A stretch of DNA of 64,000 nucleotides from NCBI GenBank assembly GCA_965242525.1, contig OZ251459.1, positions 32,001-96,000 on the forward strand, given 5' to 3'. Positions 5,520 through 62,770 of the stretch are shown here, in pieces; position 1 is the first letter of the stretch; each line of letters starts with the position of its first letter. The DNA is from an uncultured Candidatus Binatia bacterium. Its GTDB lineage: Bacteria > Desulfobacterota > Binatia > UBA9968 > JAJDTQ01. A program made the translations under genes and the position numbers. A model generated the notes under the pieces. The model had not been told where the DNA came from. It was given only the letters and a program-made list of their open reading frames with translations, and did no database searches.

Positions 5520-6392
5520 TCACGGGTCGGGGAAGGTCACTTCCAGGTCGCGAGTCCTCCCCGGCGTGACCGTCACCCGCCGCCGCGTCTCACCCAGTCT
5601 CTCGTGCCAGAAGCGCGCCTCGTAGTCTCCCGGAGGAATCCCCCGCACCGCGAAGCCGCCGGTTGCATCGGTCACCGCGAAGAAGCGGTTGGGCGCCACC
5701 ACGATGTACGCGCTCATCCACGCGTGGTGGAGCTCGCAGACCACCTTCACCACCCCGGGACGGCGGAGCGTCCTGGTCACCCGGCGCCATCGAGGCAACC
5801 CCTCGTTGAACAGGGTCTCGGGGCCCATGCGGGCATGGGCGTCGTGGAGTATGGGGTCGCTGTTCAGGAGGAGCACGGCGCTGCCCACAGGCGCCGCCTG
5901 GACGTGCGGCGCGAACCGGCAGCCCACGTTGTCCAGCGCGATGGCTTGGGGCCGCACCGGGGTTCGGCGGAGGCCGGCCCCGTGCAAGGTGACCACCACG
6001 TTCCGCAAGCCCCGGTCCGCGTCCACGAGCAGGCTCTCGTCGGGGACCGCGGAGCCGCAGAAAGCCCGTTCCTTGTAAACCCGCAACGCTTTCGGGGGCG
6101 GAGGCCTGCCGCGGAACCGCACCGTCCCGGCGATGGCGCCGGTGCCCGCGCGAACGAGTCCCGGCCTTGGCGCAAGGCCGTCAGCGCGCGCCGGACCGTG
6201 GTTCGCGCCGACCCAGAGGACCAGGCTCGCGGCGATGGCGAGAGGCGGCGCGAGGACCGTCCGCAAGCGCGCCGGCCGCGGCCGGAGTCCCGGCCCGGCT
6301 TCCGGCGGGTCCCGGTGGAGCCGGAAGCCGCGGGCACGCCAACGGTGGAAGAACGACGAGGACCCCTCGGCGCACGTTCGACGACGCGGCAA
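5520..6392 (-). CDS. Exported protein with cupredoxin-like and carboxypeptidase-regulatory-like domains (start uncertain)
   Basis: Hydrophobic leader, LDNVGCRFAPHV, NSDPILHDAH, CELHHAWMSAYIVV, FAVTDATGGF..GIPPGDY. Confidence 0.7.
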   Translation of the reverse strand: MPRRRTCAEGSSSFFHRWRARGFRLHRDPPEAGPGLRPRPARLRTVLAPPLAIAASLVLWVGANHGPARADGLAPRPGLVRAGTGAIAGTVRFRGRPPPPKALRVYKERAFCGSAVPDESLLVDADRGLRNVVVTLHGAGLRRTPVRPQAIALDNVGCRFAPHVQAAPVGSAVLLLNSDPILHDAHARMGPETLFNEGLPRWRRVTRTLRRPGVVKVVCELHHAWMSAYIVVAPNRFFAVTDATGGFAVRGIPPGDYEARFWHERLGETRRRVTVTPGRTRDLEVTFPDP

Positions 6393-6460
6393 AGGGGTCC
6401 TCGTCCGAGTGCTCGGGGAAGCGGTCCGTTGGGACCCGGACCGCCCCCTGGCGGGTTTGA

Positions 6461-7378
6461 TTAGTGGGCGGTTGACTGGACGTCCAGGTTGACCAGATCC
6501 ACCGGCCTTTCGGTCTCGGCCAGCATCCCCCAGCTCTTGATCCAGGCGGCGGTGCGCTCCAACTCGTCCGCGGGGATGGGCGCCGGGTCCACCACCACGA
6601 TGCGGCTGTCGCGGAGCTCGTCCGCCCTGATGGCGGCGATCTCCGGGTCGTCCTTGTGGTAGTCGATGAAGTACTGCATGTACTTCTTCTTGTCGGCGTT
6701 GATGCGGCGCACGGCCTCGCGCACCGCGCGGTTGAACTTCTCGTAGGTCTCCGAGTCCACCTTGTCGGACGCCACCTCGGTGCCGTGGAGGGAAGCCGAA
6801 ACCACGATACGGCAGCCTTTCTTCTCCGCCAGCGTGAGGTAGGGCTCGGTCAGCGGCGTGGCTTCGATCTCCCCCTTCATGACCGATTCCAGCCGGTAGC
6901 GGGAGCCGCGCGGGGCCTGGCAGAGCCGGATCTCGTCACGGGTGAGGAAACCCTCCAGCATGTGCAGCGTCAGGTAGTGGGTGCCGAAGAAGAACGGCAC
7001 GCCCACCAATCGGTGGGCGAGTTGCTGGGCGGTGTAAACCGGCGAGTCGGGCCGCACCACGAGGCCGGCATAGGCGATGATGGAGCGCCTGCCGACCTGC
7101 CGGCCGGTGTCCACGTCGGAGTCCTGCACCCGGCAGTAGTTGCCCCACTCGCAGGCGTTGTACATGTCCGCCTGGCCCTGCTCGAACAGCATGCCGTGGC
7201 TCGCGTGCGGGTTGGCGTCCTTGGGGTCGGTGACGTCGGTGTGGGTCTGCTTGTCGCCCGGTCCGCGGTCGGCCCACTCGATCTCCAGACCCTCCTTCTC
7301 GAACAGGCCTTCGGCGTCGGCCACCAACTCGCACAGACCCTGGAACGGCGCAGTGCTCTCGAGAACCAGCTTCTTCAT
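6461..7378 (-). CDS. NMT1/THI5-like substrate-binding protein
   Basis: VADAEGLFEKEGLEIEW, LVVRPDSPV pattern; GGAG RBS before ATG 7378. Confidence 0.75.
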   Translation of the reverse strand: MKKLVLESTAPFQGLCELVADAEGLFEKEGLEIEWADRGPGDKQTHTDVTDPKDANPHASHGMLFEQGQADMYNACEWGNYCRVQDSDVDTGRQVGRRSIIAYAGLVVRPDSPVYTAQQLAHRLVGVPFFFGTHYLTLHMLEGFLTRDEIRLCQAPRGSRYRLESVMKGEIEATPLTEPYLTLAEKKGCRIVVSASLHGTEVASDKVDSETYEKFNRAVREAVRRINADKKKYMQYFIDYHKDDPEIAAIRADELRDSRIVVVDPAPIPADELERTAAWIKSWGMLAETERPVDLVNLDVQSTAH

Positions 7379-7725
7379 GGCTTTCTCTCCTTTGTGTCGT
7401 TTTTTCCTTGCTGTTTCCTCGACCGGAGTCGAGCAGGAGTCCCACACGTCGCGAACGGAAAAGCCGCCCGCCCACGGATGGATCCTGCAACCTCAAGCTC
7501 CCTATACTACAGGTCGCCGCCCAAGCGCAAGAGTGCCATAAGGAACGACTGACCTCGGAAGAGGCGACCTTGTTTCGGGCGGGGCTTCGTGCCACACTGC
7601 CCGCCGATCTGGGACGATGGCTTGGGGAGTCGGGCCTCGTCCAGCGTCCGGGTGGTTCCGTGCCGCAAGCTCCATCTTCACACGCGCCTGCCGGGGGCTC
7701 CGGGGAGGGGCGGTCGCTGAAGGAC

Positions 7726-8958
7726 GTGGCCCAGTCCGGGGTGTCCTTCGGAGCGCTCCGACAGAGCCACTTCCGCGCCTATTTCTTCTACACCATGTTG
7801 GCCATGATGGCCGACAACATCGAGCACGTGATCAGCTACTGGGTCATCTACGAGATGTTCCGGTGGCCCGAGTTGCAGGGGTTCGCGGTCATCAGCCACT
7901 GGTCGCCGTTCCTGCTCCTCTCCTGGTACGTGGGCCTGCTCTCGGACCGCTTCGATTGCCGCCGGGTGATCCAGGCGGCCATGATCCTCTACTTCGTCCT
8001 CACCATCGCATGGGCGTTCTTCATCGTCACCGGGACCCTGCGGGTCTGGCACGCGTGCGCGTTGCTGGTGGTGCACGGGGTCGCGGGGGTGTTGTGGAGC
8101 CCGGGAAGCCAGCTCATCCTGCACGACATGGTGGGGCCGGAACACCTCCAGAGCGCCGTCCGTCTCAGCGCCACCAGCCGGCAGTTGGGGATCCTCATGG
8201 GGCCGGCGGTGGGCGGCTACATGATGCTCCGGTTGGGAGCGGCGTGGGGCCTGGTGGTGAACGCGCTGTTCTACGTTCCCCTGACCCTGTGGCTCGCCCG
8301 GGTCCCCTATACCGGCCACGGGGCCAACGCGGTGAAAGCGCGGCGGGTCACCTGGGCCCGGGCCCTGGAAGCGTTGCGGGAGGCGCGGAGCAACCACGTC
8401 ATCGTCTCCATGGTCTGCCTGGTGGGGTTTTCCTCGCTGCTGGTGGGCAACGCCTTCCAGGCGCAGATGCCGGGTTTCGCCGCCAGCCTGGGCAAGGGCG
8501 AGGCGGGTTACAGCTTCCTGCTCGCGGCCAACGGCGCCGGCGCGTTCCTGAGCGGCGTCCTGTTGGAGACCCGGGGGTTCCTCCAGGCCCGGGCGCGGAC
8601 GGCCATCGTCCTGGCGCTCCTGTGGTGCGCCGCCCTGGGGATATTCGCCTTCACGTCCCTCTATTACGTGGCGCTGGCGCTCCTGTTCGCCGCGGGGTTC
8701 CTCAACCTGGCCTTCCTCACCATGTCGCAAACCCTGGTCCAGCTCATCTCCCCAGTCCACCTCCGCGGCCAGTTGATCGGCCTGTTCATCATGTCCGGTC
8801 TCGGGCTGCGGACCTTCAGCGGCTTCACCGTGGGGATACTGGGGGGCGCCATCGGTATCCGGTGGTCCCTGGGCCTGAGTTGCGGCGTGCTGGTGGCGGT
8901 CATGCTGGCGTTGCTGGCGGTCACGGCCCGGGCGCAGCGCCGCGGCGCGGACGGCTGA
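7726..8958 (+). CDS. MFS transporter (start uncertain)
   Basis: About 12 hydrophobic segments, GLLSDRFDCRRV motif A, P.HLRG. Confidence 0.9.
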   Translation: MAQSGVSFGALRQSHFRAYFFYTMLAMMADNIEHVISYWVIYEMFRWPELQGFAVISHWSPFLLLSWYVGLLSDRFDCRRVIQAAMILYFVLTIAWAFFIVTGTLRVWHACALLVVHGVAGVLWSPGSQLILHDMVGPEHLQSAVRLSATSRQLGILMGPAVGGYMMLRLGAAWGLVVNALFYVPLTLWLARVPYTGHGANAVKARRVTWARALEALREARSNHVIVSMVCLVGFSSLLVGNAFQAQMPGFAASLGKGEAGYSFLLAANGAGAFLSGVLLETRGFLQARARTAIVLALLWCAALGIFAFTSLYYVALALLFAAGFLNLAFLTMSQTLVQLISPVHLRGQLIGLFIMSGLGLRTFSGFTVGILGGAIGIRWSLGLSCGVLVAVMLALLAVTARAQRRGADG

Positions 8959-57945: not shown

Positions 57946-58767
57946 CTACGTCCGCGCTTCCGGCTCGGCGCCCACCGTCCAATAGCGTCCGTCGCTTCGC
58001 TTCAAGCCGAGGGGCGTCTCGTAGAGGTCCCGCAGCAGGCCCTCGGTGACCACGTCCGCGGTCCTGCCCGACCGGAACACCCGACCCTCCTTCAGGACGA
58101 GGGTCTTCTCGAAAGCGGGCAGGATTTCCTCGGTATGGTGGGTGACGTAAACCAGGGCGGTCGATCCGCTCGTGCGGCCAAGCTCCTGGAGCGCCGAGAG
58201 CAGGCTTTCCCGCGCCCCCGGGTCCAGCCCTGCGCAAGGCTCGTCCAGGAACATCAGGTAGGGACGGGTCATCAGCGCCCTGCCGATGAGGACCTTCTGT
58301 TGCTCGCCCTGGGAAAGCGCGCCGAACGCCCGGTCCTTCAAGTTGCTGCACCCCATCCGCTCCATGACGGCTTCGGCCCGGGCGTAGTCCTCCTCCCCGG
58401 GATGGACCGTGGACATCTCCAACAGCCCGACCTGCGCGAACTTGCCCGAGACCACCGTGCGCAGCGACTTTTCGCGGACGGGTATCTGCGAGGTCAGCGA
58501 CGCAGTGACCCATCCGATGCCTTTGCGCAACTCCCGGAGGTCCACCCTCCGCTTCCCGTTGCGGTAGATGACCCCGCCCCGGTTGGGCCACAGGTAGCCG
58601 CACGCCAGTTTCAGCAGCGTGGTCTTCCCCGATCCGTTGGGTCCCAGCACCACCCAGTGCTCTCCCCGGTCCACCACCCAGTCGATGGAGTCGAGGATCG
58701 TGTGGCGCGCCGCGGCGTACGAGACGTTCCGCACGTCCAGCGGGACCGTCGTGTTCATCCCGTGCAT
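57946..58767 (-). CDS. ABC transporter ATP-binding protein (ModF/YlmA-like)
   Basis: GEHWVVLGPNGSGKTT, LSQGEQQKVLIGRAL, LDEPCAGLD, VTHH. Confidence 0.9.
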   Translation of the reverse strand: MHGMNTTVPLDVRNVSYAAARHTILDSIDWVVDRGEHWVVLGPNGSGKTTLLKLACGYLWPNRGGVIYRNGKRRVDLRELRKGIGWVTASLTSQIPVREKSLRTVVSGKFAQVGLLEMSTVHPGEEDYARAEAVMERMGCSNLKDRAFGALSQGEQQKVLIGRALMTRPYLMFLDEPCAGLDPGARESLLSALQELGRTSGSTALVYVTHHTEEILPAFEKTLVLKEGRVFRSGRTADVVTEGLLRDLYETPLGLKRSDGRYWTVGAEPEART

Positions 58768-58849
58768 CCCTTCCCTGACGACCCCGGCGCAACGCGGCCG
58801 ATGGCTTGCCTCCGGGTCCGCGGCGCCCATGGCCGGGTCTCGACGGCGG

Positions 58850-59524
58850 TCATCCGTTTGCGATGCGGCAGGCCTTCCAGTTCTTCGTCCAGTGTTCGTC
58901 GGTTTGCACGTGCCCTTCCCGGACGCTCTTGCAGACGTTGCGAGGGAACTCGCTGGCGGGAAAGGCGGCTTCATGCCGTATCACCACGCCTTCCCGCGCA
59001 CCGCCCAGGGCCGACGGCTCCCGATGCGCCCGCGTCATGAACTCCCGGATTTCATCCACCGACCGGAAAGAACCTTCGAACAGCACGGGAACCACCGGGA
59101 TGCCGCGTTCCTTCGCGTAATCCGCCAGCGTCCGGAACGATGCGAACGAGCCGTCCCGGAAGCGAAGCGCAAAGGCGTAGAAGGTCTCGTCTTCGGCCAC
59201 CGGGTCGTATGCGATGCTGTGCACGCCGTAGATGTCCTCCCCGTAGAGGAACACGTCCGGGTCCGTCACCTTCCACGCATGGTGCTTCCGGACCATCGCC
59301 ATCCATTTACCGGCGGACGGCGCGGAGACGCTGCGCCCATAGACCTCGCCCCTGTGGATGAGCGTGTTGCCGCCGTCGAGCTTCTCGGTGGCCACCACCG
59401 GCGTCCCCACGAACCGCCCCGGCTCCGCAACGAGCTCGTCCCTCTCGCTCACCGTCGGCGAGTAGGGCCAGTAGGGGGTTTTCGGGTACTTGAGCATGGG
59501 ATTGGACGTTGCAACGACGATCAT
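58850..59524 (-). CDS. ATP-dependent RNA ligase family protein (Rnl2-like nucleotidyltransferase)
   Basis: KYPKTPYWP, TEKLDGGN (motif I), LYGE (III), FYAF (IIIa), REGVVIR (IV), KSVREGHVQT (V); alternative start at 59497. Confidence 0.88.
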   Translation of the reverse strand: MIVVATSNPMLKYPKTPYWPYSPTVSERDELVAEPGRFVGTPVVATEKLDGGNTLIHRGEVYGRSVSAPSAGKWMAMVRKHHAWKVTDPDVFLYGEDIYGVHSIAYDPVAEDETFYAFALRFRDGSFASFRTLADYAKERGIPVVPVLFEGSFRSVDEIREFMTRAHREPSALGGAREGVVIRHEAAFPASEFPRNVCKSVREGHVQTDEHWTKNWKACRIANG

Positions 59525-60033
59525 GCAGGTTTCAACGGTTTTGAAGCATGCTGTGGGCAAAGCTGTTGTACGGTCACGCCCAGACCTCTCGTCAGCGCTT
59601 TCTCTTGATTCCAATCACTGTCCATCGCGTTGAGGATGTTGGCCTTCCCAACTACAGCCGTTGCGAGAAACTTGCGGTCGGATGGGTCCAGACCGTTTTC
59701 TGGCAGTTCCTCGAAGCCCCTGCGTTTATCGCTGCCTGGATCGCTGCATTGCGTAATCGAAACGCGACGCACGCGTTCTCCGCTGTACTGATGATTAAAG
59801 ACGTACTTGAAGAACATGTCTCCCAACCCTGGCCCGCCTTTCCAGTTTAAGTTTTTACTATATTCATCGAATATGAGGTCCTGGTCGTCAACGACAACAA
59901 CTTGCCGACTGTGCGGACTGCAAATTTCTCTCAGTTTCTCTCTGCATGTCAATTGGCACCCCTCGTCCGCGTGTATGTCTCCTCGTCCATTGGCCACGAT
60001 GGCAACGTTGGTTTCCACGACGTAAGCTGTCAT
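59521..60033 (-). CDS. PIN-fold putative ribonuclease
   Basis: VVETNVAIVAN, IFDEY, LDPSDRKFLATA, NAMDSDW acidic pattern; lower GC. Confidence 0.72.
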   Translation of the reverse strand: MTAYVVETNVAIVANGRGDIHADEGCQLTCREKLREICSPHSRQVVVVDDQDLIFDEYSKNLNWKGGPGLGDMFFKYVFNHQYSGERVRRVSITQCSDPGSDKRRGFEELPENGLDPSDRKFLATAVVGKANILNAMDSDWNQEKALTRGLGVTVQQLCPQHASKPLKPA

Positions 60034-61424
60034 TTCGAGGCTCCCATCCGTCTTTTCATGGATGCATCGACGATGGCGGCAATCTCACCCATTTCATCTC
60101 CAAAAAAATTCTCTGGCCAATTTTCTATTTTACCCCACTCATTCAGCTTAAGGTCGTTCAATTTGGCTGCGCCACGGCTTGTCTCAACGAAATAGAGCTT
60201 CATATCCGATGAAGGCACTTTCTCTTCGGCTACACGGCGCTGGAAGCGCCGCAGCAAGTGCTCGCTGTGGCTTTCTACGATAATTTGTACCTCACGTTTC
60301 TTGGCAACCTCGATCATCACTTCTGCCAACCCGCTCTGGACGGATGGATGTAGATGGATCTCAGGTTGTTCCATCATCACGATGGAGCCTTCCGGCACGT
60401 AGTACAGGAGTACTAGGACGGGCAGCACTTGGGAGACGCCGAACCCGACATCCGTCAACGTTGTCTCGGGACCACGCGGATCTTTTTTCACGCGGGCTTG
60501 GTAAAGGTTTGTCCCGGATCCGATCTCTTCGATGCGGAACGAATGGATCATGTCTAATTCGTGTAACCAATAGGCGATCATTTCCTGAAACGTCTTGAGC
60601 CTTCCGCGTCCGATGTTTCGCTCCTCTCCTCCCGCGGTAGCCGCGAGAATGGCATCGACAGTGCGTTCGCCGCGTGGCCCCACCCCGTCAGGGCTAGCCC
60701 CGGACCATCGGTACTCGCGTTGCGGATATTCTCGGAGAGGGCCGAGGTAGAATATCTTGTCCATTAGGCCTTCATACTCGTACTCGAACTCGCTAAGAAA
60801 GCTGGTGTTCTGAAAGTACGTCTGGGCTTGGTCCGGAAAGAGGTGGCTCTTGGTCGGGCCGGACAGGGGCCATCCTCGCCCTTGATTACGAACGAAGTTG
60901 AACGGACGCTTACCCTCTGATTTGATCTGGAATTCCTGGGATCCTTTTGTCCTTGTCTCGTCACTGATCTTGGGTTCGATCCCGAACGTAGTTTCCGAGA
61001 AGCCGTATTCCATGCGGCGCGCTGACAGATGTTCGTCTATCAACCCTATCTGGTTCAACCCTACTCGAGTGCTCAACCGCAGGTCGTCTCCTTCGTAGAG
61101 TATGTCCTTGCGACTACCCATGGGATCATGGATCTTGAGAGGCTTCAGCAACTCCCAATTTAACATCCAGCTAATGTCTGTATTCCGGTCGTTTCCATGC
61201 ACGATGGCCTGGTAGTTCCCGAGGTTCACCATCTCGTTGGGTCCGCCGAAATCCAGCACGAGCCTCCGGTCCGTTGCATTCTTGGTTTGTTTGAGCAGTA
61301 GCAGCAACTGGAGGATGCTGCTCTTGCCGGAGCTGTTCTCCCCAAACAGGCCGGTGACCTTGCCGAAATGCATTTGCAGTTCGCGCCAAGCCTTGAAGTT
61401 GGTGACTTGAAGCTCTTTCAACAT
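60030..61424 (-). CDS. AAA_15/AAA_21 ABC-type ATPase with C-terminal DUF3696
   Basis: NFKAW, GENSSGKSS, YLGPLR, DVGFGVSQVLP, MEQPEIHLHP, VESHSEHLL, WPENFFGD; lower GC. Confidence 0.9.
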   Translation of the reverse strand: MLKELQVTNFKAWRELQMHFGKVTGLFGENSSGKSSILQLLLLLKQTKNATDRRLVLDFGGPNEMVNLGNYQAIVHGNDRNTDISWMLNWELLKPLKIHDPMGSRKDILYEGDDLRLSTRVGLNQIGLIDEHLSARRMEYGFSETTFGIEPKISDETRTKGSQEFQIKSEGKRPFNFVRNQGRGWPLSGPTKSHLFPDQAQTYFQNTSFLSEFEYEYEGLMDKIFYLGPLREYPQREYRWSGASPDGVGPRGERTVDAILAATAGGEERNIGRGRLKTFQEMIAYWLHELDMIHSFRIEEIGSGTNLYQARVKKDPRGPETTLTDVGFGVSQVLPVLVLLYYVPEGSIVMMEQPEIHLHPSVQSGLAEVMIEVAKKREVQIIVESHSEHLLRRFQRRVAEEKVPSSDMKLYFVETSRGAAKLNDLKLNEWGKIENWPENFFGDEMGEIAAIVDASMKRRMGASK

Positions 61425-62770
61425 GGGTTGTTCTCCTTCCTTTGGTTTGCATCAAGTTCTCTGACATCCGTAGGTTCCGGGCGTGGGCCGGTGCGATCCT
61501 CCGCTTTCAGCGCGTCCAGCGCTTCCCGGACCAGCTTTCGCCGTAGCGCCTTTTCCTCGTCCGGGGGGAGGCTGGCGTCGCCGGCCACGTGCACGATTCC
61601 GTGGCCCAGGACCACGCGGTTGGAGCCCACCATCCTGGCGATGGGGAGGGCGGAGGTCATCTGCACGACCGGGACGCCGGCTTTTTCGAGTTCGGTGGTG
61701 ATCGCAGCGCCGCTGCGAGTGCTGGTGCCTCACGTGGAGGTGAGGATCACCGCGTCCACGCCTTCGCGCTTCACCTTCTCGGCCATCTCCCGGCCCAGGC
61801 GGCGGGTGTTGGAAAGGGGGTTGGAGAGGCCGGAGGTGGAGAGGAACTCCCCGTGGACCTTGCCCACCGCGCCTTCCTGTTCCAGTTCCCTCAGGGCGTC
61901 CAGGGGCACCAACCGGTCCGGGTCGGCCTGCACGAAGCGCGGGTCGTAGCCGCCGTGGGAGATCTCGTAGTCCTCGCCTCGGAGGTCGTCCGCGCCGGTG
62001 ATGTCGTAGGCGCCCCACCGGGTGGCCGCCATCCCCTCGATGGCGTCCGGGTTGCCTTTGGGGACGAGGCCGCCGTCGGTGATGAGCATCACCGTGGCGC
62101 TGGAAAGGTCTTCTACTCCTCTGGGCTTGGCCACGGGCTCGAAAGAGGTAACGGGCATCTCGGAGTCGAAGGGCCGTCCCTGCACCTTGGCCAGGACCAT
62201 GTCCACCAGCCGCTCGGCCGACGACTTGTCCACGAACTCGTCCCGTATCAACCCTCGGGTGAGGTAGCCTTCTTCCCGCGGCGCTCCGATGGGCTCCCCG
62301 GCCGCGAGCTTTCGCGCCAGCCGGGCCATGCGCTGCACGACCTCCTTCATGCCGGCCGCGTTCCGGCCGGAATCGACGATGTAGAGGCCCTCCCGGTAGA
62401 GGTCCACTCCCGGGTTCTCCTCGTGCATGGCCGTGAGCGCGGGGATACCGAGTTGCGTCTGCACCGCGCTGCACAGGGCCCCTGCGGCCATGCCGTAGCG
62501 GCCGGCGTCGAAGCACGGGCCGGCCACGAACAGGTCTGCCCGGGAGTTGCGGACGTGCTCCAGCACCGCGGCGATGAGCTCCTCCTGGCGCTCCACCGCG
62601 TAGTTGTCGCCGCAGACCAGGGTCTTGACCACCGCGGCCCCGTCCCCGATTGTCTGCTGTAGCAGGCGGCCGGGACCCAGGGCTTCGTCCGCGGCCCGAA
62701 GAGGGCTTCCCGCATGCTCCTCGCCGCCCATCCCGCCGAAGAACTGGTTGAGGTAGTGGACGATCCTCAT
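61418..62770 (-). CDS. grdB: Glycine/sarcosine/betaine reductase selenoprotein B, with UGA at 61730-61732 read as Sec
   Basis: HYLNQFFGGMGGE, GPCFDAGRYG, TDGGLVPKGNPD, HGGYD, DAVILTST-UGA-GTSTRSGA.ITTELEKAGVPVVQ continues in frame into the 61418-61666 ORF. Confidence 0.88.
61702..61718 (-). promoter_or_regulatory. Putative bacterial SECIS hairpin
   Basis: On the mRNA, TCGCAGC-GGC-GCTGCGA (7-bp stem, G-containing loop) begins 11 nt after the UGA. Confidence 0.7.

Follow-up and report, generated by a model that had tools for sequence, protein, structure and literature searches.

A predicted three-gene member of the HEC-03 family, with an RNA ligase as its third component, in a Candidatus Binatia genome

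The subject of this report is a cassette of three genes on the minus strand of a 64,000-nucleotide stretch of DNA (hereafter, the window) from an uncultured Candidatus Binatia bacterium (GenBank assembly GCA_965242525.1, contig OZ251459.1, positions 32,001 to 96,000). The cassette encodes an ABC-type ATPase with a C-terminal DUF3696 tail (464 amino acids; 60030..61424), a predicted PIN-fold nuclease (170 amino acids; 59521..60033) and a predicted minimal ATP-dependent RNA ligase (224 amino acids; 58850..59524). From sequence comparisons it is predicted to be a three-gene member of the HEC-03 family, with a mechanism that can be proposed by analogy, and the ATPase, PIN and ligase genes were found to share their inheritance, transfer and loss across many phyla.

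Profile searches identified the first two proteins as a HEC-03 pair. The ATPase was recognised by the Pfam models AAA_15 (6.5e-28), AAA_21 (1.5e-22) and, at its C-terminus, DUF3696 (4.1e-08; 33.8 bits against a cut-off of 22), and it matched PADLOC-DB v2 model PDLC04148 (HEC-03B) with an E-value of 3.1e-204, residues 1-461 aligning to positions 1-454 of the 458 in the model. The PIN protein matched PDLC04147 (HEC-03A) at 7.6e-59, with residues 4-165 on positions 3-157 of 159. The A and B names are swapped between sources, in that HEC-03B is the ATPase in PADLOC and HEC-03A is the ATPase in the preprint describing the system. The HEC-03 definition asks for adjacent genes, and those for the ATPase and the PIN protein lie on the same strand with a 4-base ATGA overlap. 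The Walker A motif of the ATPase is intact (GENSSGKSS, following the pattern GxNSxGKSS), and its Walker B motif reads MEQPE, with EQ replacing DE, a feature that was invariant across 73 family members.

HEC-03, or Hma-embedded candidate 3, is presented in the preprint as an ABC ATPase encoded with a PIN protein resembling VapC ribonucleases; defence by the tested homologue is stated there to require both genes, and its induced expression appeared toxic (Payne et al., bioRxiv 10.1101/2024.01.29.577857). The pair in the window is thus assigned, at the level of sequence, to the HEC-03 family of ABC-ATPase plus nuclease anti-phage systems, in which the ATPase is presumed to be the sensor and keeper of the nuclease and the PIN protein the RNase effector. 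The original prediction, made from the sequence alone, had placed the pair among anti-phage systems of the ATPase and nuclease type, and the PADLOC matches and the defence reported in the preprint bear this out. Its suggestion that the module was possibly undescribed does not hold: the pair is HEC-03 of PADLOC, and the idea of a ligase, ATPase, PIN and HNH system is attributed to Burroughs & Aravind 2016 in a summary by Matelska et al. 2017.

The call of a PIN domain in the middle gene, which had likewise been made beforehand, was not supported by Pfam, and its alpha/beta/alpha PIN fold was borne out by structural modelling. An AlphaFold2 model built with 43 homologues reached a predicted local distance difference test (pLDDT) score of 91.8, and when it was compared with solved structures using VIA-align, most of the top 30 rows were VapC-type toxins or other PIN-domain proteins (Z 9.5-7.8, root-mean-square deviation about 3 Å, 111-122 residues aligned). 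Foldseek also placed VapC toxins among the top matches, with a probability of 1.00 and an E-value of only about 1e-3, and a profile-based sequence search against solved structures returned chance-level rows only (E above 4). Among the acidic residues, E57 and D119 were invariant and D138 and D140 were present in at least 90% of the 43 sequences; position 7 is an aspartate in most relatives and a glutamate in the window protein. By analogy with other PIN proteins, these conserved residues probably form the active site. The likeness to VapBC type II toxin-antitoxin systems is confined to the VapC-like fold, as no small VapB-type antitoxin gene was found just upstream of the PIN gene, where the 464-residue ABC ATPase is encoded instead.

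The third protein matched the Pfam family RNA_ligase (PF09414) at 3.5e-20 (73.3 bits against a cut-off of 27). It had been noted beforehand as carrying all five nucleotidyltransferase motifs, and this was upheld: motifs I, III, IIIa, IV and V are kept (K48-x-D50-G51, E96, F118/A119, E178-G179 and K199..R202), and K48, D50, G51, E96, E178, G179, K199 and R202 were invariant in 59 ligase sequences that included phage homologues. An N-terminal stretch (KYPxTPYWPxSP) and a C-terminal stretch (HVQTDEHW) are also conserved. The protein consists of the nucleotidyltransferase domain alone with conserved N- and C-terminal extensions, ending about 20 residues after motif V, and the C-terminal domain of T4 Rnl2 is not present in its 224 residues; because no domain follows motif V, we refer to it as Rnl2-like and minimal rather than as an Rnl2. 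Its AlphaFold2 model, built with 30 close sequences, was poor (pLDDT 58) and was used only for family-level fold matches, the Foldseek leaders being the ATP-dependent RNA ligases 3qwu, 2vug, 2hvr, 1s68 and 6vtg, of the Rnl3, Rnl2 and Rnl5 kinds. The ligase matched no PADLOC model and, in a profile-based sequence search, no solved structure at E<=0.01; a search of NCBIfam returned nothing above cut-off, the ligase scoring 16.4 bits against RNA_lig_DRB0094, for which the cut-off is 151. A complex prediction for the PIN protein with the ligase scored 0.00 in two runs without controls and has no bearing on binding. C198, H205, H211 and C219 (window 58857-58932) are nearly invariant in ligases linked to HEC-03. 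A CHHC zinc site at the C-terminus was considered and dropped; it is doubtful because the two cysteines, C198 and C219, vary across the wider family.

Inspection of the sequence confirmed that the three minus-strand genes are joined by the ATGA stop/start overlaps originally described, one between the ATPase stop and the PIN start (60030..60033) and one between the PIN stop and the ligase start (59521..59524); both were read directly from the letters, as TCGAAATGACAGCT and CCTGCATGATCGTC. The open reading frame of the ligase spans 58850-59614 on the minus strand, and an in-frame ATG at 59524 gives the 224-residue product. A further ATG at 59497, which had been put forward as an alternative start, is indeed in frame, but the start at 59524 is favoured because the same 'MIV' start overlapping the PIN stop recurs in relatives (L047, L039, L052 and L055; L and G numbers are our own handles for loci and genomes). 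The greater AT-richness of the ATPase and PIN genes was also confirmed, their G+C contents being 0.53 and 0.52 compared with 0.68 for the whole window, and that of the ligase gene is 0.64.

The neighbourhood of homologous genes supports treating the ligase as part of the unit. When one genome per species was scanned with the PIN alignment as query, 291 relatives were retrieved and the best 80 were examined, in 63 of which the PIN gene was followed directly by a co-directional ligase gene, its product 65-86% identical to that of the window. Grouping of these 63 loci by single linkage on shared flanking reading frames (at least 2 shared) resolved at least 32 contexts with unrelated flanks, and the relatives came from Binatia, Latescibacterota, Spirochaetia, Acidobacteriota, Alpha- and Gammaproteobacteria, Palauibacter and Rhodothermales. 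A metagenome search seeded with the ligase gave a similar picture: in 23 of the 24 loci with a ligase at least 65% identical (L119-L142) a PIN gene lay upstream, accompanied by the ATPase gene in 17, the 24th (L123) having only 230 bases upstream, too short to judge. No ATPase or PIN partner was found in any locus with a ligase less than 60% identical (the rest of L145-L198 and 24 viral loci), nor within the 3.5 kb upstream of a 68% identical ligase in L150, where the contig ends inside the ligase gene.

Plasmids also carried the unit. Twelve plasmid records matched the PIN protein at 30-36% identity, and in five of the six examined the annotation read ATPase (DUF3696 or AAA), hypothetical protein and 'RNA ligase family protein', the hosts being Aeromonas veronii, A. 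salmonicida, Azotobacter chroococcum, Tistrella mobilis and Rhodococcus aetherivorans. The triad appears to be old, because the Aeromonas plasmid ligase is only 27% identical to that of the window. On the Aeromonas plasmids (L229, L232) the triad stands among genes for an AbiEii/AbiGii toxin, Hok/Gef and a metallophosphoesterase with a GASH protein, a setting that looks like a plasmid defence island. No fusion of an HNH domain to a ligase was seen among 7 longer or distant ligase reading frames. With the ligase next to the PIN gene in 63 of the best 80 species-scan loci, 23 of 24 metagenome loci and 5 of 6 plasmids, the gene-neighbourhood check that had been proposed came out in favour of the link, and the notion of ATPase, PIN and ligase as one conserved unit stands, the unit being mobile and recurring in at least 32 unrelated contexts.

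Within the genus, the PIN protein was matched in 11 of the 24 Candidatus Binatia relatives searched and the ligase in 14, the latter number taking in second copies as well as one weak, unrelated match. In eight relatives grdB is followed by the ATPase, PIN and ligase genes, all intact and ordered as in the window; G006 carries the cassette but has no grdB upstream of it, and two (G019 and G010) hold decayed copies. In all five of the pair-less genomes examined (G002, G005, G011, G020 and G021), the 2-5 kb between grdB and the ABC ATPase and xth genes contained none of the three genes. It follows from these five relatives, which lack the ligase as well as the pair, that the ligase never stands alone after grdB. 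The link would have had to be abandoned, by the terms of the original prediction, had the ligase never co-occurred with the pair elsewhere or had it directly followed grdB in relatives lacking the pair; what was found was wide co-occurrence and five pair-less relatives with no ligase after grdB.

Comparison with the closest relative, G023, revealed an uneven divergence along the cassette. The flanking proteins are 92-94% identical between the two genomes and the ligases 86%, compared with 61% for the ATPases and 59% for the PIN proteins. At the DNA level (window 58850-61550 against locus L013 of G023), the flanks are 91-98% identical and the ATPase and PIN genes 30-84%, and in the ligase gene the first 300 bases are 93-96% identical and the rest 77-88%. 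On the simplest reading, recombination would have replaced the sensor-effector part and left the ligase in place.

Across the family, pairwise distances between ligases and between ATPases were correlated over 68 loci with a Spearman coefficient of 0.80 (0 of 999 permutations as high) and those between ATPases and PIN proteins with one of 0.53, though the loci are related and not independent, so that the significance is overstated. The ligase was the most conserved component, with a mean pairwise distance of 0.30 compared with 0.35 for the ATPase and 0.40 for the PIN protein, which fits an enzyme acting on a conserved substrate. On a FastTree tree of the ATPases, loci without a ligase fell mostly in basal groups and at least 4-5 changes were needed to explain their distribution, a scoring that wrongly counted as ligase-less both L101, the contig of which ends inside the ligase gene, and L112, which has a partial ligase; the distant ligase-bearing plasmid systems fell outside the main clade.

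A step in nucleotide composition was seen in nearly all loci. The G+C content of the ligase gene exceeded that of the ATPase gene in 60 of the 61 loci with all three genes, the means over loci being 0.567 for the ATPase gene, 0.570 for the PIN gene, 0.631 for the ligase gene and 0.670 for the flanks. Because it was seen in 60 of 61 loci, this step is a trait of the family, and the earlier caveat that a ligase of host-like composition might predate the insertion was accordingly rejected.

Decay of the cassette was also informative as to the order in which its genes are lost. In four loci (L132, L134, L138 and L116) the ATPase gene has been lost and the 5' end of the PIN gene truncated, with the ligase frame intact, an order expected if losing an antidote first is costly. 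Decayed copies were common (L022 in G019, L023 in G010, L026 in G003, L048 and L120, in addition to the four above) and took the form of a frameshifted ATPase gene, a fragmented PIN gene or a deletion fusing the ATPase to the ligase; in several of them the ligase frame outlives the ATPase and the N-terminus of the PIN protein.

The ligase belongs to a wider family with a second defence association. The phylogeny of 137 ligases was inferred by a quick maximum-likelihood analysis with a midpoint root, in which all 77 HEC-03-linked ligases fell on one side of a branch with a support of 85, the label having been given by locus range and so taking in L123, where the upstream sequence is too short to check. 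Next to them stood a small clade of 4 ligases plus L145, and both groups were nested among ligases from viral and other metagenome contigs (support 98). As the roots are midpoint only, no direction of transfer between phage and defence ligases is claimed. The loci of the small clade (L024 at 6055-8504, L025, L143 and L144) have the order ligase, ABC ATPase, small protein; their ligases are 65-67% identical to that of the window, and the partners match the PADLOC models PDC-M07A (E 1e-164) and PDC-M07B (3e-54), PDC-M07 being a candidate defence system in that collection. The small protein, PDC-M07B, has a weak Pfam PIN match (E 7.6e-4), and L026 is a decayed copy of this unit. Because the ATPase of L024 is only about 22% identical to that of the window, the same ligase lineage accompanies two different ATPase-PIN pairs. 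PDC-M07 was also matched in 9 plasmid records; the three loci examined, one of them embedded in a type I restriction operon, all lacked a ligase, and for this reason PDC-M07 with a ligase looks to be a minority form.

Homologues of the ligase in viral contigs (L199-L222) were 26-52% identical, on contigs of 23-508 kb, and had no ATPase or PIN neighbour. Another 25 records from named phages were 29-39% identical, including those of the jumbo phages Atu_ph07, XacN1, Phosso and Caulobacter phages CcrBL9 and CcrSC; the copy in XacN1 is annotated as a '2'-5' RNA ligase', an apparent misnomer. Ligases of this kind are described by Iyer et al. 2021 (PMC7824862) as serving jumbo phages in RNA repair against host attack on tRNA.

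Several known systems resemble the cassette in part. With HEC-03 as described it shares the adjacent, co-directional ABC ATPase and VapC-like PIN genes, the window proteins matching the models over their full length, but HEC-03 has been described and modelled as two genes, whereas the window and 63 of the best 80 loci have a ligase third; a search of the preprint's main text for the word 'ligase' gives no match (bioRxiv 10.1101/2024.01.29.577857). A possible precedent for the triad is a table in Matelska et al. 2017 (PMC5499597), which lists some PIN_3/COG1569 genes in operons with an ATP-grasp RNA ligase, an ATPase and HNH, and in which a conflict system where the ligase neutralises the nuclease is attributed to Burroughs & Aravind 2016 (NAR 44:8525). 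As summarised there, the predicted system likewise joins RNA ligase, ATPase and PIN in one operon, and one relative of the window cassette has HNH as the third gene; it differs in that its PIN domain is PIN_3/COG1569, which Pfam did not detect here, and in that the window has no HNH. In parts and in logic the two agree, and they may be the same family; the one-sentence summary in Matelska et al. (PMC5499597) was all that a literature search for HEC-03 with a ligase turned up among the texts it reached.

Menshen offers the closest parallel for the ATPase, which matched the NsnB model at 2.7e-61; the PIN protein and the ligase matched no Nsn model. A DUF3696 tail and a non-canonical Walker B motif (EN in NsnB, EQ here) are shared by the two ATPases, and in the Menshen article the DUF3696 tail of NsnB is predicted to be its contact with PIN-like domains (PMC12065111). 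The cassette differs, however, in having no ParB/DUF262 NsnA, its neighbours being grdB and an ABC ATPase, and whereas NsnC is an inactive PIN domain with an effector, the window PIN protein keeps its acidic residues and has no fused effector domain. Menshen is also without a ligase as far as that text goes, the word occurring 0 times (PMC12065111). PARIS was considered and set aside, as the AriA models matched only weakly (E 4.8e-31, in two stretches) and no neighbouring protein matched the Toprim AriB.

Other likenesses concern the combination of an RNase with a ligase. In the case of HARP and Rnl3, an RNase of PIN fold occurs together with an ATP-dependent RNA ligase, often as its neighbour, but the ligase is of the Rnl3 family (PF18330/TIGR01209), the genes are mostly divergent, there is no ATPase, and the setting is housekeeping tRNA processing in extremophiles, not mobile defence (Seshadri & Gopalan 2025, PMC12153264). 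RtcB reversal of MazF damage, as outlined in PMC5416887, likewise illustrates that a ligase can reverse the damage of an RNase toxin, although RtcB has an unrelated fold and joins other end types. PrrC and RloC, set against phage T4 Pnkp and Rnl1, are in outline similar in that an RNase regulated by an ABC ATPase acts on the translation apparatus and a ligase can undo the cut; there, however, it is the phage that supplies the ligase, and Pnkp has to heal the ends, whereas here the ligase is encoded by the cassette, the nuclease is a PIN protein and there is no kinase or phosphatase.

A mechanism can be proposed by analogy with HEC-03, Menshen and PARIS, in which the ATPase would hold the PIN nuclease through its DUF3696 tail until a phage cue brought about release or activation, and the freed enzyme would cut RNA belonging to the translation machinery. 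Enzymes of the PIN type generally depend on metal ions and generate 3'-OH and 5'-phosphate termini. Termini of this kind would be joinable by an ATP-dependent ligase without end-healing enzymes, and no kinase or phosphatase is encoded in the cassette. Because ends cut by a PIN enzyme would be directly joinable, the ligase would act on the damaged RNA and not on the toxin, mopping up leaky cleavage, permitting recovery after the threat, or both. The chances that the ligase is a repair enzyme, serving as a substrate-level antidote or reset for PIN-cut RNA, are in our estimation about even. It would be an accessory and not a core component, because two-gene forms exist and one has been reported to defend. 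More tentatively, it may be a portable 'undo' function, a substrate-level antitoxin from a family of jumbo-phage repair ligases that has been plugged into at least two unrelated pairs (HEC-03 and PDC-M07) and kept while the sensor-effector part was swapped, thereby making RNA-cutting defence reversible; this fuller version we regard as possible, with the odds clearly against it.

Several observations weigh against a repair role and against the chain of analogy behind it. The PIN protein had no Pfam match at E<=0.01, PF13470 included, the target in the HEC-03 family may be RNA or DNA, and the chemistry of the cut ends is presumed here from general knowledge of PIN enzymes. The correlations of pairwise distance count for less than their permutation values would imply. 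No ligase was present in 17 of the best 80 of the 291 loci, where no consistent third gene followed the PIN gene, and because of these loci and the two-gene form of the HEC-03 system that was tested, the ligase would be dispensable for control of the PIN protein and for defence as such. The sealing step is itself open to doubt, in that the C-terminal domain of T4 Rnl2 is needed for efficient sealing and a ligase without it may need a partner or have another job. Finally, on the sixth plasmid examined, pAS843-2 of Acinetobacter soli (L228, 2139-4796), an HNH endonuclease (PF13391) occupies the third position, and a second nuclease in the ligase slot fits an extra effector better than an antidote. 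At this Acinetobacter locus, a distant relative of HEC-03, the annotation splits the ATPase in two, and upstream there is a gene for an N-6 DNA methylase.

The HNH variant also speaks for an offensive role, by which the ligase would seal shortened or mis-joined RNA, or circularise fragments, after the PIN cut and so leave a lesion beyond phage repair; the third position would then be an effector slot that HNH can also fill. Excision of the wobble nucleotide by RloC frustrates phage repair. This excision is described in the abstract on RloC, and phages proficient in repair are plausible opponents given the RNA-repair ligases that Iyer et al. ascribe to jumbo phages (PMC7824862), the nearest non-defence relatives of the cassette ligase being found in viral contigs of jumbo-phage size and in named jumbo phages. 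Neither a trimming activity nor a second cut is in evidence, however, the ligase persists in decayed loci where the PIN gene is truncated, as would be expected of an antidote, and its high conservation fits either role; an offensive ligase is accordingly judged unlikely. Only slightly less favour is due to a system acting on DNA or RNA:DNA hybrids, in which the PIN protein would nick invader or host nucleic acid and the ligase would seal the nicks of the host. HNH endonucleases, typically DNA-directed, replace the ligase on that one plasmid, DNA ligases come further down among the Foldseek matches of the modelled ligase, and the PIN-like superfamily includes DNA flap nucleases in the classification of Matelska et al. 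(PMC5499597), but the best structural matches of the PIN protein were VapC RNase toxins and not FEN-type nucleases, and the ligase matched Pfam RNA_ligase, had RNA ligases as its best structural matches and contains no OB or other DNA-binding domain.

The stronger correlation of the ligase with the ATPase than of the ATPase with the PIN protein (0.80 against 0.53) could also be taken to mean that the ligase is a sensor, bait or regulator, either bound by a phage factor that blocks repair, so triggering the ATPase, or reporting ATP or RNA-end status through its adenylylation. PARIS provides a model, as an ABC-ATPase defence triggered by phage anti-defence proteins. We nonetheless consider such a role improbable: the catalytic motifs are all invariant, which argues for catalysis, and the ligase is the slowest-evolving part of the cassette, whereas baits and sensors usually evolve fast. 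Least probable of all, and by our estimate very much so, is that the ligase is a mere neighbour, a general RNA-repair gene hitch-hiking beside the pair. The two-gene forms (17 of the best 80 loci), a ligase G+C content that is closer than that of the pair to the host value, and the 86% identity of the ligase between this genome and its closest relative beside 61% and 59% for the ATPase and PIN protein would all be explained in this way. Against it, the arrangement is found again, with the genes in the same order, on one strand and closely spaced, in at least 32 contexts from several phyla; within the genus the three genes come and go as a set, they are joined in the window by stop/start overlaps, the triad is kept even at 27-30% identity, and a sister ligase stands beside a second ATPase-PIN family.

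The cassette lies immediately downstream of grdB in this Candidatus Binatia genome, and on its other side the genes for an ABC ATPase and then an exonuclease III-type enzyme (xth) were identified by Pfam. The grdB gene (61418-62770, minus strand) has an in-frame TGA at 61730-61732, presumably a selenocysteine codon, followed by 103 more codons, and its stop (TGA, 61418-61420) overlaps with the ATPase start (ATG, 61424-61422) in the interval 61418..61424. This overlap and the last ~26 residues of grdB are common only to the window and its closest relative G023; in the other relatives the alignment to the grdB tail ends at residue 77-87 and a spacer of ~140-260 bp precedes the ATPase gene. Most relatives in the genus also have a gene of ~390 amino acids on the opposite strand (L016:6732-7916, L020:6683-7843, L223, L224, L225 and L226) and further DNA between the ligase gene, or grdB, and the ABC ATPase gene, a stretch that is missing in the window and in G023, where the ligase gene abuts the ABC gene. 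A scan of 58500-62000 yielded 1 promoter-like site, where 0.8 was expected by chance, and 0 terminator-like sites, and was uninformative.

The idea that a ligase reverses the action of a nuclease is not itself new, and the value of the cassette lies in comparative evidence rather than in discovery. What the window adds is comparative detail, namely the swap of a sensor-effector part beside a retained ligase, the PDC-M07 partner, the kinship with phage ligases and the pattern of decay. HEC-03 has been catalogued and tested as a two-gene system, and because most of the relatives closest to the window carry a ligase as the third gene, the catalogued definition is probably incomplete and misses a common part. 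Natural handles on the function of that part exist in the two- and three-gene forms, the HNH variant, the second ATPase-PIN family with its sister ligase and the phage homologues. An RNA-sealing enzyme borne by the cassette itself raises the question of whether RNA-cutting immunity is made reversible, or whether its damage is made proof against repair by the phage.

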